This document shows, piece after piece, positions 28,943 through 64,000 of a DNA stretch of 64,000 bases. Position numbers and translations under genes: made by a program. Origin of the DNA: a virus (lineage: Duplodnaviria > Caudoviricetes). The stretch spans positions 229 through 64,228 of the IMG/VR virus record IMGVR_UViG_3300020204_000066, one strand, 5' to 3'. Numbering within the stretch: position 1 is the stretch's first letter; each line of letters begins with the position of its first letter. The notes beneath the pieces were generated by a model. That model was not told the DNA's origin and searched no databases. It saw nothing but the letters and a program-made list of their open reading frames with translations.

Positions 28943-29851
28943 TTACATTCCGAACACAATAGTGGTAGCAAATGCTTGTGCTTTTGCAGTTGCTAATTGA
29001 GCATTAATATTAACTGTTGTCGTATCTCCCTGTGCAAGTAGTTCCCAAACAGTAGAGTTTGTTCCTGGAACAACAGAATTGGTTTCAGTTAGGTTGATGT
29101 ATGATGATGCGCTAGCAACAACAAATACAACTTCTCCTGGTAGGTATGAGTTTGCTGGGTTCCATACTCCAGCATATTTCATTCCTTGTACTACCAATCT
29201 CCAATAAGTATATCCATTGCTAGCATTTGGTTTTATGCCAGTTGAATTTGCAATATTCACATATGTATAACCACCATACTGAATTAAATCTCCAGGAATA
29301 TATGCAGTTGCATTATTATAAGTTCCTCTTTCATTAAACCCAGTGGTTATAATATCCCAGTCAGCATTGATTGAAGTACTTGGAGCAACTCCAGTGTTTA
29401 CTGTAAGAGCAACATATGTATAACCTCCATATGTTACTAAATCTCCTGGTTGATATTGAGTACCAACTTGCCAACTATCTTCAAATTTTAGTCCTTCTAG
29501 GAAAATTGAAAATTTGGTATTATCTAATGCTGCTCCTGCGGACAAATGAGGAACTGTACAAAGATGTAGATTGTTTCCAAATTTTACAATATCATTTAGA
29601 TTGTAATAGGTTGCTGCAGCCCAAGTTCCTGCATTTTTAACTCCCTCTAAATGCACTGCCCATTTTGGGGTGCCTGCTCCTAGACCATCAGTTGCATACC
29701 AGTTGTTTAGTGATGCTACAGATGTGTGATTGGATACTGCAACATATGAGTTTCCTCCCAATGTTACAATATCATCAATTTCATAAGCAGTGCTTGCAGT
29801 CCAAGCACCTCTCCAATTAAATTTTAAGCGTCCAATTCTGAAGTCTGCCAT
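28943..29851 (-). CDS. structural protein with CBM5/12-like repeats
   Basis: Five repeats of W/YxxxxxYxxxDxVxxGxxxY. Confidence 0.75.
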   Translation of the reverse strand: MADFRIGRLKFNWRGAWTASTAYEIDDIVTLGGNSYVAVSNHTSVASLNNWYATDGLGAGTPKWAVHLEGVKNAGTWAAATYYNLNDIVKFGNNLHLCTVPHLSAGAALDNTKFSIFLEGLKFEDSWQVGTQYQPGDLVTYGGYTYVALTVNTGVAPSTSINADWDIITTGFNERGTYNNATAYIPGDLIQYGGYTYVNIANSTGIKPNASNGYTYWRLVVQGMKYAGVWNPANSYLPGEVVFVVASASSYINLTETNSVVPGTNSTVWELLAQGDTTTVNINAQLATAKAQAFATTIVFGM

Positions 29852-60787: not shown

Positions 60788-60816
60788 TTGACAGCACCTC
60801 AGATTCCTGCTATACT
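60788..60816 (+). promoter_or_regulatory. sigma70-like promoter TTGACA-17-TATACT
   Basis: Near-consensus boxes 24 bp upstream of the ATG at 60841. Confidence 0.8.
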
Positions 60817-60840
60817 GATCACAGAAATACTCAATACATT

Positions 60841-61080
60841 ATGCGACGCTATCTTGCAATCCTGACTGCAGCCACTATCCCGCTTGCTGCAAACGCTTAT
60901 CAACCTCAATACAATCCCCCCACCATCGTAGCCCCTCCTAATCAGGCACCTGTTGTGGTTCCCCCGACTGTTATTATGCCCGCTGCTGCTCCGATGTCCT
61001 CTAAGACCTCCTGTAAGCGTAACGTAATTAACTTGTTTCTCGTGTCCTGGGAAACTCATAGTGGAGACTGCCATCCATGA
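60841..61080 (+). CDS. small Pro-rich exported protein
   Basis: Signal-peptide-like MRRYLAILTAATIPLAANA, a Pro-rich linker and a C-terminal Cys pair. Confidence 0.75.
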   Translation: MRRYLAILTAATIPLAANAYQPQYNPPTIVAPPNQAPVVVPPTVIMPAAAPMSSKTSCKRNVINLFLVSWETHSGDCHP

Positions 61081-61229
61081 AGACGTACTCTACGAGAGAC
61101 TGGGTATCTACTGCAGTTACGACTACCCTTTTATGTGTCTCCTCTATTTGCATTGTGGAACTTTTCCAAGTGCCTTCATATAGAACAGATAAACTTCTGA
61201 ATGTCTATAAGATCTCAGCGACCCTTTGA
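61077..61229 (+). CDS. small putative membrane protein (50 aa)
   Basis: Not in the ORF track: MKTYSTRDWVSTAVTTTLLCVSSICIVELFQVPSYRTDKLLNVYKISATL. ATGA overlap with the previous gene; ends at the terminator. Confidence 0.55.
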   Translation: MKTYSTRDWVSTAVTTTLLCVSSICIVELFQVPSYRTDKLLNVYKISATL

Positions 61230-61239
61230 GGGTCTTTTT
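61220..61239 (+). terminator. Rho-independent terminator
   Basis: GACCCT-TTG-AGGGTC stem followed by TTTTT. Confidence 0.75.
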
Positions 61240-61364
61240 CTGGCGAAAAATTTTTTTATTTGAAGTGTTATCGCACTCGCGTTTTCAAAGTTTTGTAGGT
61301 TAATAGTATCTATCAATTTTCCTTTCGCTCGGCCGCCCCCGTCGCACGGCGGTCGCATCGTTGG

Positions 61365-61396
61365 ACTGCCCCCCGAGGGCTACTGCCCCCGAGGGT
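61365..61396. repeat. short direct repeat ACTGCCCCC(C)GAGGG x2
   Basis: Two adjacent copies at the boundary of the GC-rich region. Confidence 0.7.
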
Positions 61397-61412
61397 GTGC
61401 TAGGATGGGGGG

Positions 61413-61607
61413 TCAGTCCCCCAGAACCCAGGTCGCCAGTTCGCCTGCGTCGAGGCGCTCATTCATCAGTGCCCACCACGGGGAGTCGATGAAGGCGTCG
61501 AGCAAACCCTGGTGGTGGATGAAGCGGAGACCCTCCAACCAGGAGACGGTGCCATCCCACTCAGCAGAGGCGAGGAAGTCATCCCACAGGGTCACGTCGT
61601 TGGTCAT
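61413..61607 (-). CDS. putative early hypothetical protein
   Basis: 64 aa, downstream of promoter cassette 1. Confidence 0.75.
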   Translation of the reverse strand: MTNDVTLWDDFLASAEWDGTVSWLEGLRFIHHQGLLDAFIDSPWWALMNERLDAGELATWVLGD

Positions 61608-61633
61608 CGGTCGGTGTCGGTTGAACTGTGGTT

Positions 61634-61692
61634 AGTCTAGAGGCGATCCGCCTCAGTGGCGGTCGCTGATGTGCCAGTTGGTGATGGGGGCA
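61634..61692 (-). promoter_or_regulatory. early promoter cassette 1
   Basis: TGCCCCC-N8-CTGGCAC, 31 bp, TAGACT. Confidence 0.75.
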
Positions 61693-61817
61693 GGCACAGG
61701 GCGGATGCCTTGGCGGATCTCCTGGCGGATCTGCTCCTCGCGGATCACCTTGGCGGTGTAGTCTGCCATCACGGTGGCGAGCAGTTGTTCGTGGGTCATC
61801 TTGGTTTGGTTGTTCAT
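61653..61817 (-). CDS. putative early hypothetical protein (54 aa)
   Basis: Not in the ORF track: MNNQTKMTHEQLLATVMADYTAKVIREEQIRQEIRQGIRPVPAPITNWHISDRH. Confidence 0.75.
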   Translation of the reverse strand: MNNQTKMTHEQLLATVMADYTAKVIREEQIRQEIRQGIRPVPAPITNWHISDRH

Positions 61818-61823
61818 GCTGTC

Positions 61824-61881
61824 AGTCTACAGGGTCAGGGCATCTCGCAGGCGCCAGGGAGGACACTGTTGTAGGTGGCAC
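61824..61881 (-). promoter_or_regulatory. early promoter cassette 2
   Basis: GTGCCAC-N8-GTGTCCT, 30 bp, TAGACT. Confidence 0.8.
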
Positions 61882-62011
61882 AGCGGCGCTCGGTGGCGGC
61901 GTTCACGCTCTGCACGGTGTCAGCGGCGAAGGTCACAGCGGCGCTGCCTGCTGCCATGATCGGACCGTAGAAGGCGGCACCGAGGACGAGGAGGGCGATG
62001 GTCTTGAACAT
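61835..62011 (-). CDS. putative early membrane/exported protein (58 aa)
   Basis: Not in the ORF track: MFKTIALLVLGAAFYGPIMAAGSAAVTFAADTVQSVNAATERRCATYNSVLPGACEMP. Confidence 0.75.
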   Translation of the reverse strand: MFKTIALLVLGAAFYGPIMAAGSAAVTFAADTVQSVNAATERRCATYNSVLPGACEMP

Positions 62012-62038
62012 TGGTCGGGTCGTTTGGTTGATGTGGTT

Positions 62039-62097
62039 AGTCTACAGGGTCGATCGGTCGATCTGGGGTCAGAGGGGGACAGTTCCCCAGGTGTCCC
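62039..62097 (-). promoter_or_regulatory. early promoter cassette 3
   Basis: GGGACAC-N8-CTGTCCC, 31 bp, TAGACT. Confidence 0.8.
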
Positions 62098-62661
62098 TCA
62101 CAGTCCTTTCTCTTCAAGAATAGGGGCGACAACCTCACGAAGGAAGGTAAAGTATTCGTCAGATGTGAAGGGGGTCTCGATGATAGTGAGCAGGTCATTC
62201 ACGCCCCACACGTTCATGCCTTTGTTGGCGTACTTTGTCTGTTCTTTGTTGCTTACTGTAGCGACGACAGGCACAAAGTAGGCGGCGGTGATGTTGCCTC
62301 CGATAGTCTCAGCGATGGCGTTGATCTTATCATTACTGGCACGGATCTTCTCGCTGTCGAAGTTCAGATTGCACTTGCTCTCCAGGTAATAGTTCTGGGC
62401 GTTAATCTCAAACAAGTGATCGATTTGGCGCTGACGATCGTTAACGTCGAGCATGTTGGATTCTTCGATCAGGTTGGTGGCGTTGCTGTCGCTGATCACT
62501 TGATTCCAGAACCGCTCGATACGCTCACCGAAGGCAATGAGAATAGATTGAGGCGAGACACGATCAGCAAGACCGAGCGCCTCTAGGATGTGAGATTCAG
62601 TCTGCTTCGGTTCGATCGAGAGGATCAGGGGCAGCAGGTTGGTTTCCAGGTAAGCAGTCAT
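62098..62661 (-). CDS. putative PD-(D/E)XK restriction-endonuclease-fold protein
   Basis: FGERIE...QIDHLF...YYLESKCN gives an E...D...ExK arrangement. Confidence 0.55.
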   Translation of the reverse strand: MTAYLETNLLPLILSIEPKQTESHILEALGLADRVSPQSILIAFGERIERFWNQVISDSNATNLIEESNMLDVNDRQRQIDHLFEINAQNYYLESKCNLNFDSEKIRASNDKINAIAETIGGNITAAYFVPVVATVSNKEQTKYANKGMNVWGVNDLLTIIETPFTSDEYFTFLREVVAPILEEKGL

Positions 62662-62683
62662 TGGGTTGTTTGTTGATGTGGTT

Positions 62684-62742
62684 AGTCTACAGGGTCAGCG
62701 AGGCAGAAGCGGGCGATCAGGGGACACTTGCTTAGGTGTCAC
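62684..62742 (-). promoter_or_regulatory. early promoter cassette 4
   Basis: GTGACAC-N8-GTGTCCC, 31 bp, TAGACT. Confidence 0.8.
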
Positions 62743-62928
62743 ATCCTGCACCCGAACCTGCTCTACGAAATGGTAGGACGGTTGGCGGCGTCGTCTTGCC
62801 ATCTTGGCGATAGTACGGACAGCGCGAACGGTGCCGATCGGATTTGATGCCAGGGCACCTGCTGCCGACATGGCAGCGGTCATGGTGCCACAGACGGCGA
62901 TGATGACCAGCGAACCTAGAATGACCAT
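62695..62928 (-). CDS. putative early membrane-anchored protein
   Basis: Hydrophobic N-terminus followed by a basic tail; TGATG overlap with the upstream gene. Confidence 0.7.
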   Translation of the reverse strand: MVILGSLVIIAVCGTMTAAMSAAGALASNPIGTVRAVRTIAKMARRRRQPSYHFVEQVRVQDVTPKQVSPDRPLLPR

Positions 62929-63086
62929 CAGGCGAACTGGGCGAGGGAGGAGGGGGCGATGTGAGCGGGCGATCCACAGGAGCGGTAGAAGTCCACCATC
63001 CGCTCTGCCTCAGCGAGCGTGGGGAACCACTGCGAGCGCCACTCCTGGTGGTTGTAGGGGGTCTGGTAACGGACTTCGATTCGCAT
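62928..63086 (-). CDS. putative early hypothetical protein (52 aa)
   Basis: Not in the ORF track: MRIEVRYQTPYNHQEWRSQWFPTLAEAERMVDFYRSCGSPAHIAPSSLAQFA. Confidence 0.8.
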   Translation of the reverse strand: MRIEVRYQTPYNHQEWRSQWFPTLAEAERMVDFYRSCGSPAHIAPSSLAQFA

Positions 63087-63108
63087 CGGGTTGTTTGCTG
63101 ATGTGGTT

Positions 63109-63167
63109 AGTCTAGAGGGTCTGGGGGGGCAACGCTGCCCCCGCTGTGCCAGTTCAGAAATCGGTCA
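63109..63167 (-). promoter_or_regulatory. early promoter cassette 5
   Basis: TGACCGA-N8-CTGGCAC, 31 bp containing a GC hairpin, TAGACT. Confidence 0.8.
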
Positions 63168-63375
63168 GCATGTCATCCAGTTCGTCGGTGTCGATCTTAG
63201 CGTCCATCCAACGGGCGCCGTCTGGGGTCATCTGCCCCCACAGCATCTCCAGGTGGGGAATCAGTGCGTTGTAGCGGTTGAACCGCTGAGCGAGGTTGTA
63301 GGTCGTCTCGTCATTCTGAATCCAGAGGGCGACGTTCCAGGTCTCCCAGTTTGCCCATCCGTTGAAGGTGGTCAT
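63154..63375 (-). CDS. putative early hypothetical protein (NGWxNWETWNVALW motif)
   Basis: Start moved to the ATG at 63375, downstream of cassette 6. Confidence 0.8.
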   Translation of the reverse strand: MTTFNGWANWETWNVALWIQNDETTYNLAQRFNRYNALIPHLEMLWGQMTPDGARWMDAKIDTDELDDMLTDF

Positions 63376-63402
63376 GGTTCGGTTCGTTTGGTTGATGGGT
63401 TT

Positions 63403-63460
63403 AGTATGGCACCCCTTGGCGGGGTTTGGGGCAGTTGGTGGACAGTGCCTCAACTGTCAC
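63403..63460 (-). promoter_or_regulatory. early promoter cassette 6
   Basis: GTGACAG-N8-CTGTCCA, 30 bp, CATACT. Confidence 0.75.
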
Positions 63461-63633
63461 AGGATCTGCAGGTCGTCCAGGATCTTGCCATCGCGGCGGA
63501 TCTGAGCGTAGACGAACTCGTCTGCCTTGATGGCGAGCAGGCGCTGCGCCTCTGCCCAGGTATCAGCAGACATGGACTCCCAGGGGTCAGAGGGGACGAA
63601 GACGGTGAAGCGGCGTTGGTTGAGGTTGTTCAT
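63457..63633 (-). CDS. putative early hypothetical protein (58 aa)
   Basis: Not in the ORF track: MNNLNQRRFTVFVPSDPWESMSADTWAEAQRLLAIKADEFVYAQIRRDGKILDDLQIL. Confidence 0.7.
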   Translation of the reverse strand: MNNLNQRRFTVFVPSDPWESMSADTWAEAQRLLAIKADEFVYAQIRRDGKILDDLQIL

Positions 63634-63639
63634 GCTGTA

Positions 63640-63698
63640 ATTCTACAGGGTCAGGATGGGGTCTGTGTGACCCCTTGTGCCAGTGCCTCAGGTGGTCT
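63640..63698 (-). promoter_or_regulatory. early promoter cassette 7
   Basis: AGACCAC-N8-CTGGCAC, 31 bp, TAGAAT. Confidence 0.8.
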
Positions 63699-63849
63699 CG
63701 TGGTAGGCGTCGCTGACTTTTTCCTGTACACTGTCGAAGACCTTTTGATCCATCCAATCGGGGCAGTCCTCATGGAAGCAGACCAGATCATAGAGAACTG
63801 CCATCTCGTCAGTGGTAAAGGCGGTCAGCATGTCGTAGCGGTTGAGCAT
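63688..63849 (-). CDS. putative early hypothetical protein (53 aa, acidic)
   Basis: Not in the ORF track: MLNRYDMLTAFTTDEMAVLYDLVCFHEDCPDWMDQKVFDSVQEKVSDAYHETT. Confidence 0.75.
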   Translation of the reverse strand: MLNRYDMLTAFTTDEMAVLYDLVCFHEDCPDWMDQKVFDSVQEKVSDAYHETT

Positions 63850-63873
63850 TGTGCGTTTGTGGTTGATGCCGTC

Positions 63874-63931
63874 AGTCTACAGGGTCACGGTCTGGTGGCG
63901 CTGCAGGAGTGTGCGGTTCACCCACTGTCCC
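63874..63931 (-). promoter_or_regulatory. early promoter cassette 8
   Basis: GGGACAG-N8-CCGCACA, 30 bp, TAGACT. Confidence 0.75.
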
Positions 63932-63999
63932 AGCGAAGCGCCAGGGTTGACCATCAGGCGTAGCATGTCACGACGGCGGCAGTCATGGGCGGTCACGCT
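63877..63999 (-). CDS. putative early hypothetical protein (3' part only)
   Basis: ...SVTAHDCRRRDMLRLMVNPGASLGQWVNRTLLQRHQTVTL; its TAG stop is the first half of the cassette 8 -10 box. Confidence 0.6.
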   Translation of the reverse strand, partial: SVTAHDCRRRDMLRLMVNPGASLGQWVNRTLLQRHQTVTL

Positions 64000-64000
64000 G

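Follow-up and report, generated by a model that had tools for sequence, protein, structure and literature searches.

Promoter-like cassettes in a GC-rich small-gene island of a T4-like cyanomyovirus share a dyad and its spacing with host yfr2 promoters

Early genes of T4-like cyanophages reportedly carry a 'novel regulatory element', a motif that Doron et al. are said to have found in 2016 upstream of mapped early transcription starts in Syn9 and P-TIM40. In the T4-type phages RB49/phi1, T4/PST and KVP40/nt-1, the elements called PeSLs are repeats of ~70-100 bp that separate orphan genes in a plastic part of the T4-like genome and carry their own promoter, and relatives differ in this region by gene gain, loss and reordering, as described in the passages devoted to these elements in PMC2839356 and PMC4122927. 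The idea that genes are shuffled at such repeats is already in print for these other T4-type phages. Cyanophages are not treated in those passages of PMC4122927, nor in those of PMC2839356, and PeSLs were judged unlikely for the ORFanage of S-PM2 in the section of Puxty 2015 that discusses them (PMC4503421). On the side of the host, the main text of Lambrecht et al. 2018 (PMC6191309) describes CGRE1, an element of 21-22 nt in the yfr2 promoters of Prochlorococcus and marine Synechococcus that begins 55-57 nt upstream of the start site and is flanked by GTTG and its inverse, and on which the GntR regulator PMM1637/PlmA was pulled down and gave a shift in an electrophoretic mobility shift assay. 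In MED4, the motif is found nowhere in the genome besides the yfr2 promoters, according to the relevant part of PMC6778093. Here we describe an array of eight minus-strand cassettes that invites comparison with all of these systems. It occupies positions 61,634 to 63,931 of a 64,000-nucleotide stretch of viral DNA (positions 229 to 64,228 of the IMG/VR virus record IMGVR_UViG_3300020204_000066), and this whole stretch is referred to below as the window.

The cassettes have a common anatomy, in which an upstream dyad stands at a fixed spacing from a -10 box. The arms of the dyad show no covariation, the dyad and its spacing match the yfr2 promoters of marine Synechococcus, and recombinant junctions with related phages lie at the cassettes. 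We read each of them as a promoter with a site for the host regulator PlmA that also serves as a joint for gene shuffling, and we assign to this joint reading a probability of roughly 60%.

All eight elements are present where the original prediction had placed them (Table 1), and the gap from its 22-bp repeat to the -10 hexamer is indeed 30-31 bp throughout (30, 31, 30, 31, 31, 31, 30 and 31 bp, from 63910-63931 down to 61671-61692). The -10 hexamer is TAGACT in six cassettes, TAGAAT in one (63645) and CATACT in one (63408), again as predicted, and the last 2.7 kb contain, on the minus strand, eight instances of these hexamers, one in each cassette. The GACCCT(G/C) said to precede most of the -10 boxes was recovered as well: with at most one mismatch, GACCCT(G/C)TAGA(C/A)T occurs six times in the 64 kb, always on the minus strand between 61824 and 63886. 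The absence of a TTGACA -35 box was borne out by a scan with the sigma70 consensus, which returned no bipartite site in 61400-64000 and whose three hits all lie at 60788-61000. The description of the upstream element as a palindrome held in part: units 3, 5, 6 and 7 have a good dyad and unit 1 a partial one, but units 2, 4 and 8 keep mainly the 3' arm, AACTGGCAC. The best dyad of the window is that of cassette 3, where the stop codon of the upstream gene is the TGA of TGTGACAGTTGAGGCACTGTCCAC.

The same geometry recurs in other cyanophages. An exact scan of IMG/VR for TGACCCTGTAGACT gave at least 120 stretches, and from the matches listed and the window we took all sites of the form CC[CT][TC][GC]TA[GT]A[ACT]T (212 sites), kept those with a context of at least 52% GC (158) and removed near-duplicates, leaving 126 cassettes. 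Selection was thus made on the -10 core and the GC context, and the upstream box played no part in it. A 24-mer weight matrix refined on the 88 nt upstream converged on TGKGACAGYTGANGAASTGKCMCM, and the dyad scored above the 99th percentile of shuffles in 111 of these 126 non-redundant cassettes. All 111 dyads end 28-31 bp before the -10 box, measured from the end of the 24-mer, with 8, 36, 62 and 5 cases at 28, 29, 30 and 31 bp, respectively. Since the matrix was trained on the same 126 cassettes its scores are optimistic, which leaves the positional concentration unaffected. The aligned consensus of the set reads TGTGACAGTTGAnGAACTGGCAC, then ~30 variable bases, then CCCCTGACCCTGTAGACTAAnCnCAT; the columns in which a -35 box would be sought are C/G-rich, and the -10 core is nearly invariant. 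In the window, the matrix passes seven of the eight units and fails unit 8, and, with the exception of one antisense site at 29538, every hit that has a well-placed -10 lies in the same island as the cassettes. The version of the unit with the GACCCTGTAGACT core is restricted to one island of 2-4 kb per genome. The dyad also occurs at the same spacing from -10 boxes with other cores, giving five hits in Syn9 and seven in S-PM2 compared with none in the control of either, and in Syn9 such sites precede gp61 and gp73, within a run of small genes. In this GACCCTGTAGACT version, the putative immediate-early regulon of the original prediction would be narrower than phage-wide.

The exceptional site (29538-29561, plus strand) matches the dyad matrix at 17.8 bits, has a TATCAT 28 bp downstream and lies antisense in a tail-fibre open reading frame (ORF; 28943-29851). 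It may be a chance match or an antisense promoter.

The host sequences that share this arrangement are the promoters of yfr2. Marine Synechococcus genomes were reached by a psbD search, and yfr2-type genes were located, in five and then in 41 of these genomes, with the Rfam family Cyano-1, which we take to be Yfr2. Matches to it were found in all 41, and the RNAs start with GUGAGGAG, which is the complement of the UCCU-containing motif of Yfr1 as given in the corresponding passage of PMC6778093. We ranked the score of the phage matrix in the expected 7-nt slot among the ~6,080 positions of each of 36 distinct yfr2 loci of ~3 kb: the slot held the best position in nine loci, one of the top three in 19 and one of the top ten in 25. 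A motif derived de novo from the host sequences alone, TGTGCCAgTCaAcgaACTGGCCag, lies 34-39 nt upstream of the RNA model in 35 of the 36 promoters and its correlation with the phage matrix is r = 0.80 when the two are in register (offset 0), compared with at most 0.12 at the other offsets from -6 to +6. Among the 23 yfr2 promoters with a strict TAnnnT hexamer, the gap from the motif to the hexamer is 28-32 bp in 22. Across the 41 host genomes, TGTGMCNNTNNNNNNACTGG has 48 hits against 13 for the reversed control; 15 of the 48 lie 58-61 nt before a Cyano-1 match, 20 represent one conserved single-copy non-coding site and three are on a phage-like contig.

CGRE1 and the phage unit are accordingly alike in having a dyad of ~21-24 bp upstream of a promoter that lacks a -35 box, at the same 28-32 bp gap from the -10. 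They also occupy the same place: if transcription starts 7 nt past the -10, the phage dyad would extend from -66 to -43 with its GTTGA, apparently the reference point of the published count, at about -58, and CGRE1 begins 55-57 nt upstream of the start in the published description (PMC6191309). They differ in what they drive, which is a small RNA in the host and protein-coding genes in the phage, and the -10 core and leader are the phage's own.

Several observations weigh against so close a relationship. The phage matrix, used without gaps, scores many host sites weakly, and in 11 of the 36 loci the expected slot ranks below the top ten. Over the first five to seven positions, host and phage sites differ by a shift of one base; the phage dyad prefers TGTGAC/GGCAC and keeps GTTGA at its centre, but the phage set shows no conservation of the right-hand CAAC of CGRE1, which window unit 3 does have. 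An 86-nt profile of the whole cassette, for which 150 of ~400 candidates per genome were scored in five host genomes, reached a best E value of only 0.08, and none of its ten weak hits was at a yfr2 gene. Because this profile gave nothing significant in the five genomes, the likeness between phage and host is limited to the dyad and its spacing. A search of 185,579 species genomes for a strict 21-mer of core plus leader gave no hit; the cassette itself is thus not host DNA. Lastly, that PlmA acts at yfr2 by activation is itself a proposal, short of proof.

Three further observations concern the host sequences. RF01116, tried as Yfr2, is in fact Yfr1, and it has no match in the phage. The conserved single-copy site mentioned above, viewed at three of its 20 like occurrences (L259-L261) in the 41 Synechococcus genomes, consists of a near-identical dyad-like TGTGCCGTTGCGGTGACTGGCCCT with no long ORFs around it, followed by a degenerate second copy and TAGATT, and has no Rfam match within 1.4 kb. 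It could be a further target of the PlmA type, or else a small RNA that is not yet annotated. In the host record G038, a region of contig C1 (~131374-137874, L262) has three phage-type dyads in 6.5 kb, one of them with TATAAT 29 bp downstream. This contig of 193,981 bp, with 35-47% GC, lies within a Synechococcus assembly and looks like a cyanomyovirus binned with its host.

Downstream of the -10 box, the first ATG is 21-30 nt away in 89 of the 111 cassettes. It lies exactly 6 nt past the -10 in 20 others, all of them open for at least 30 codons, among them window units 2 and 7 (cassette 7 has a second ATG 18 nt beyond that at 61817). This suggests that leaderless and leadered versions of the cassette exist and makes units 2 and 7 candidates for leaderless mRNAs. 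The leaders of 21-30 nt are A/C-rich, as the original prediction had claimed (G at most 18%, 23/126, and T at most 8%, 10/126, at 15-27 nt past the first base of the -10 hexamer), and have no Shine-Dalgarno sequence. Transcription likely starts at a conserved CA 6-7 nt past the -10, and the predicted centre of the dyad near -54 follows if the start is 7 nt after it. A look-up of public RNA runs listed none for 61400-64000.

One other reading of the upstream box was discarded. The TGGCAC-N5 of unit 4 prompted a sigma-54 interpretation of TGGCAC, but neither the spacing nor the second element fits; cyanobacteria are not known to have sigma-54.

We consider it very likely that the unit is a promoter with a protein site, as the original prediction proposed. 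The sequence of the dyad and its distance to the -10 are kept whether or not the dyad is coding, which argues for a promoter-coupled protein site: the longest upstream frame reads past the dyad in 65 of 110 cassettes, with a later stop that often falls in cTGAccctgTAGact, it ends at the TGA of TGTGAC in 18, and the stop positions are varied overall. The dyad of cassette 5, for instance, lies within the 77-aa upstream ORF, whose stop is in cTGAccctg. The dyad could instead act as a hairpin in RNA or single-stranded DNA that ends or stabilises the upstream transcript, as the stem-loop half of a true PeSL. It often holds or trails the upstream stop codon (27 of 110 stops are at or before dyad position 2), its region is predicted to fold slightly better than shuffles (mean -5.6 vs -4.3 kcal/mol), and strong GC hairpins of -12 kcal/mol or lower are predicted in the spacers of five of the eight window units (2, 3, 4, 6 and 8), all of which count in its favour. 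The arms, however, contain anything from two to seven Watson-Crick pairs per 8-bp arm with a compensating change at no pair, positions 3 and 22 pair below chance (31 pairs observed vs 51 expected), and correlation is strongest inside the 3' arm (TGGCACA vs TGTCCAC), not between the two arms. A terminator needs no fixed distance to a -10, which is what the dyad maintains over a spacer of variable sequence, and the minus strand of the island has no terminator-like site with a GC stem and a T-run. The spacer hairpins are a separate and optional feature, only slightly more stable than shuffles over 114 cassettes (mean -11.2 vs -9.6 kcal/mol). A hairpin function for the dyad is in our view very improbable. 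We give hardly any credence to the repeats being a mere trace of a recent tandem duplication of one cassette, with a functionless upstream box. The likeness of cassettes within an island and their nearly invariant -10 core speak for such a duplication, but the spacers and flanking genes are unrelated, yet dyad and distance are kept in cassettes from many contigs, and the same dyad accompanies other cores in Syn9 and S-PM2 and recurs in host promoters.

If the dyad is a protein site, the factor that binds it may be of the host or of the phage. We name host PlmA as the candidate because the phage dyad matches CGRE1, which binds PMM1637/PlmA, and we would put its chances at about even; among the main texts covered by a literature search on the element, no paper links the phage element to CGRE1 or PlmA. 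It is also conceivable, though unlikely, that the dyad is bound by a phage protein that is carried in the virion or made first, so that the cassettes would be delayed-early or middle promoters, a cyanophage counterpart of MotA-type activation in T4, and a related fold or convergence would account for the resemblance to the host site. In favour of this, T4-like cyanophages are described as lacking motA and asiA in the relevant part of PMC5780444, the consensus differs at several positions (TGTGAC/GTTGA/GGCAC in the phage vs TGTGCC/GTTCA/GGTCAC in the host), and the GACCCTGTAGACT core is without a host counterpart. Against it, none of the nine island ORFs matches a DNA-binding family, and an in-register match at the same spacing to a site with a known host binder offers the simpler account.

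The original prediction had further suggested that the repeats double as recombination points, and comparison with relatives agrees with this. Relatives match a given cassette on one flank (78-100% identity) and are unrelated on the other; in five comparisons the switch falls at the -10 or leader, and in one it falls within the 3' arm of the dyad. The order of shared blocks is permuted relative to L053, L063 and others, with junctions inside the units: the blocks shared with the related locus L053 are 82-98% identical, and the five longest of them have all ten of their ends at -45 to +43 relative to a -10. Cassette 1 is identical to a unit of L053 over 91 nt through TAGACT (100% on the left) and then leads into a different gene (44% on the right), and cassette 7 compares with L053 at 96% on the left and 30% on the right. 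Only the downstream side of cassettes 3, 4 and 6 is in common with units in L063 or L119. On the right side, cassette 3 is 89% identical to L063, with an unrelated left side, and cassette 6 is 81% identical to L063 at site 1795, the left of which matches cassette 4; cassette 4 itself switches from L063 within the 3' arm of its dyad. Intergenic breakpoints are partly expected when whole genes move; more revealing is that the conserved patches are where identity ends. As the junctions lie in different patches (-10/leader and dyad arm), homologous exchange fits better than one fixed, integron-like crossover. On these comparisons, we consider gene shuffling at the cassettes probable.

Set beside PeSLs, the cassettes likewise lie between orphan genes in a plastic region in which relatives differ by gene gain, loss and reordering, and likewise bring their own promoter. 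Unlike PeSLs, they have neither a TTGACA -35 box nor an AT-rich UP region and carry an activator-type dyad instead, their stem-loop is optional, they are without a Shine-Dalgarno sequence, and their setting is a GC-rich island in an AT-rich genome. Mini-circles formed by recombination between units are a further feature of PeSLs. The cassettes probably belong to the same promoter class as the early element ascribed to Doron et al. Their GACCCTGTAGACT core, their leader and their GC-rich island set them apart as a distinct sub-family with one locus per genome.

The window comprises nearly all of a 64,228-bp virus record with a completeness estimate of 35%, and its end is the end of the contig. 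The large ORFs on its minus strand encode the structural and replication proteins of a T4-like myovirus, including gp46/47-like nuclease subunits, the late sigma factor, major head, portal, sheath and tube proteins, terminase and baseplate wedge proteins as well as virion proteins of 2,498-3,268 aa. Searched against the phage collection, the last 2.6 kb have DNA relatives in Synechococcus cyanophages only (28 records). Along the window the GC content is 31-41%, climbing to 56% in the final 2 kb, and the GC content of third codon positions (GC3) is 0.75 in the nine island ORFs (61413-63849), compared with 0.22 in 27 other ORFs (636-60756) and 0.65 in 13 long host frames. Composition alone, here a GC3 of 0.75 within a genome of 0.22, is no marker of recent import. 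S-PM2, S-H9-2 and three IMG/VR genomes have comparable islands of 53-62% GC. The cassette core is restricted to a single stretch of 2-4 kb with 55-61% GC in three other phage records, in genomes of 30-45% GC, and a genome rated 100% complete has seven copies of the core, all in 127186-129060. S-H9-2 has one copy, at 1236-1246 of its record, and S-PM2 has none of the window-type core, yet its homologous region is 53-62% GC. PHROGs matches were obtained for four of the nine island ORFs, every family being of unknown function, and the only Pfam match is DUF7249, for one ORF.

Table 1. Positions of the cassettes, the island and its ORFs in the window
Feature	Coordinates	Strand	Details
Cassette 1	63850..63932	-	dyad 63932-63909; -10 TAGACT 63879-63874; leader to ATG 63849; matrix score 15.5, gap 29
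Cassette 2	63634..63699	-	dyad 63699-63676 (mainly 3' arm); GC hairpin in spacer; -10 TAGAAT 63645-63640; ATG 63633
Cassette 3	63376..63461	-	dyad TGTGACAGTTGAGGCACTGTCCAC 63461-63438; -10 CATACT 63408-63403; ATG 63375; 27.1 bits
Cassette 4	63087..63168	-	dyad 63168-63145 (mainly 3' arm); spacer G7/C7 hairpin; -10 TAGACT 63114-63109; ATG 63086
Cassette 5	62662..62743	-	dyad 62743-62720; -10 TAGACT 62689-62684; ATG 62661; 22.1 bits
Cassette 6	62012..62098	-	dyad 62098-62075; -10 TAGACT 62044-62039; ATG 62011; 23.0 bits
Cassette 7	61818..61882	-	dyad 61882-61859 inside 58-aa upstream ORF; -10 TAGACT 61829-61824; ATG 61817; 13.9 bits
Cassette 8	61608..61693	-	3' arm AACTGGCACA only, inside upstream ORF; spacer hairpin; -10 TAGACT 61639-61634; ATG 61607; below matrix threshold
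GC-rich small-gene island	61330..64000	-	56% GC in 35% GC T4-like cyanomyovirus; truncated by contig end at 64000
Cassette-driven small ORFs (nine)	61413..63849	-	from ORF list; PHROGs and Pfam searches
Island ORF	63688-63849	-	53 aa
Island ORF	63457-63633	-	58 aa
Island ORF	63154-63375	-	73 aa; DUF7249
Island ORF	62928-63086	-	52 aa
Island ORF	62695-62928	-	77 aa; N-terminus hydrophobic
Island ORF	62098-62661	-	187 aa
Island ORF	61835-62011	-	58 aa; hydrophobic
Island ORF	61653-61817	-	54 aa
Island ORF	61413-61607	-	64 aa

Within the island, the frames of three minus-strand ORFs (62695-62928, 61835-62011 and 61653-61817) continue through the dyad of the next cassette, and two of the three stop in the TGA of cTGAccctgTAGact, so that the cassette supplies the last codons and the stop. 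Just below the island, at 61220-61234, a GACCCTTTGAGGGTC hairpin followed by a T-run on the plus strand is terminator-like for transcription opposing the island genes.

Taken as a mechanism, each unit would be an expression cassette complete in itself that serves one or two small genes. Reading downstream, it has a 24-bp dyad (consensus TGTGACAGTTGAnGAACTGGCACa) at roughly -66 to -43, then a spacer that is constant in length (28-31 bp) but free in sequence and sometimes forms a GC hairpin, and then a -10 box within GACCCTGTAGACT that lacks a -35 partner and is followed by the likely start at the conserved CA 6-7 nt on. Beyond this there is an A/C-rich leader of 21-30 nt that has no Shine-Dalgarno sequence, or else the ATG lies at the start site itself. 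The dyad would copy CGRE1 of the marine Synechococcus yfr2 promoters in sequence, register and distance to the -10. Host PlmA bound to it would recruit the host RNA polymerase to this -35-less promoter, and the phage could then fire these genes without a protein of its own; the start site, early timing, PlmA binding and activation are what we infer here. Expression would track the host state that switches on yfr2, that is, late starvation for nitrogen as well as high light. At the same time, related phages could use the conserved dyad and core as short patches of homology for gene exchange, insertion and deletion, much as at PeSLs.

We speculate, tentatively, that T4-like cyanophages borrow PlmA to fire mobile small genes styled in the codons of the host, which would wire early phage expression to the nitrogen and light stress signal of the host. 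With its many copies of the site, an island could also titrate PlmA off yfr2 and thereby upset the Yfr2/Yfr1 network, and the boxes would act as gene-trading joints. The comparison puts forward a testable host candidate for the factor behind a promoter class that drives the earliest genes of viruses among the most abundant in the ocean, and, if it is true, the start of infection would be tied to the nutrient and light state of the host. It would also mean that the gene-shuffling logic of the relatives of coliphage T4 operates in cyanophages with a different joint, which may help to explain the turnover of their many small genes of unknown function.

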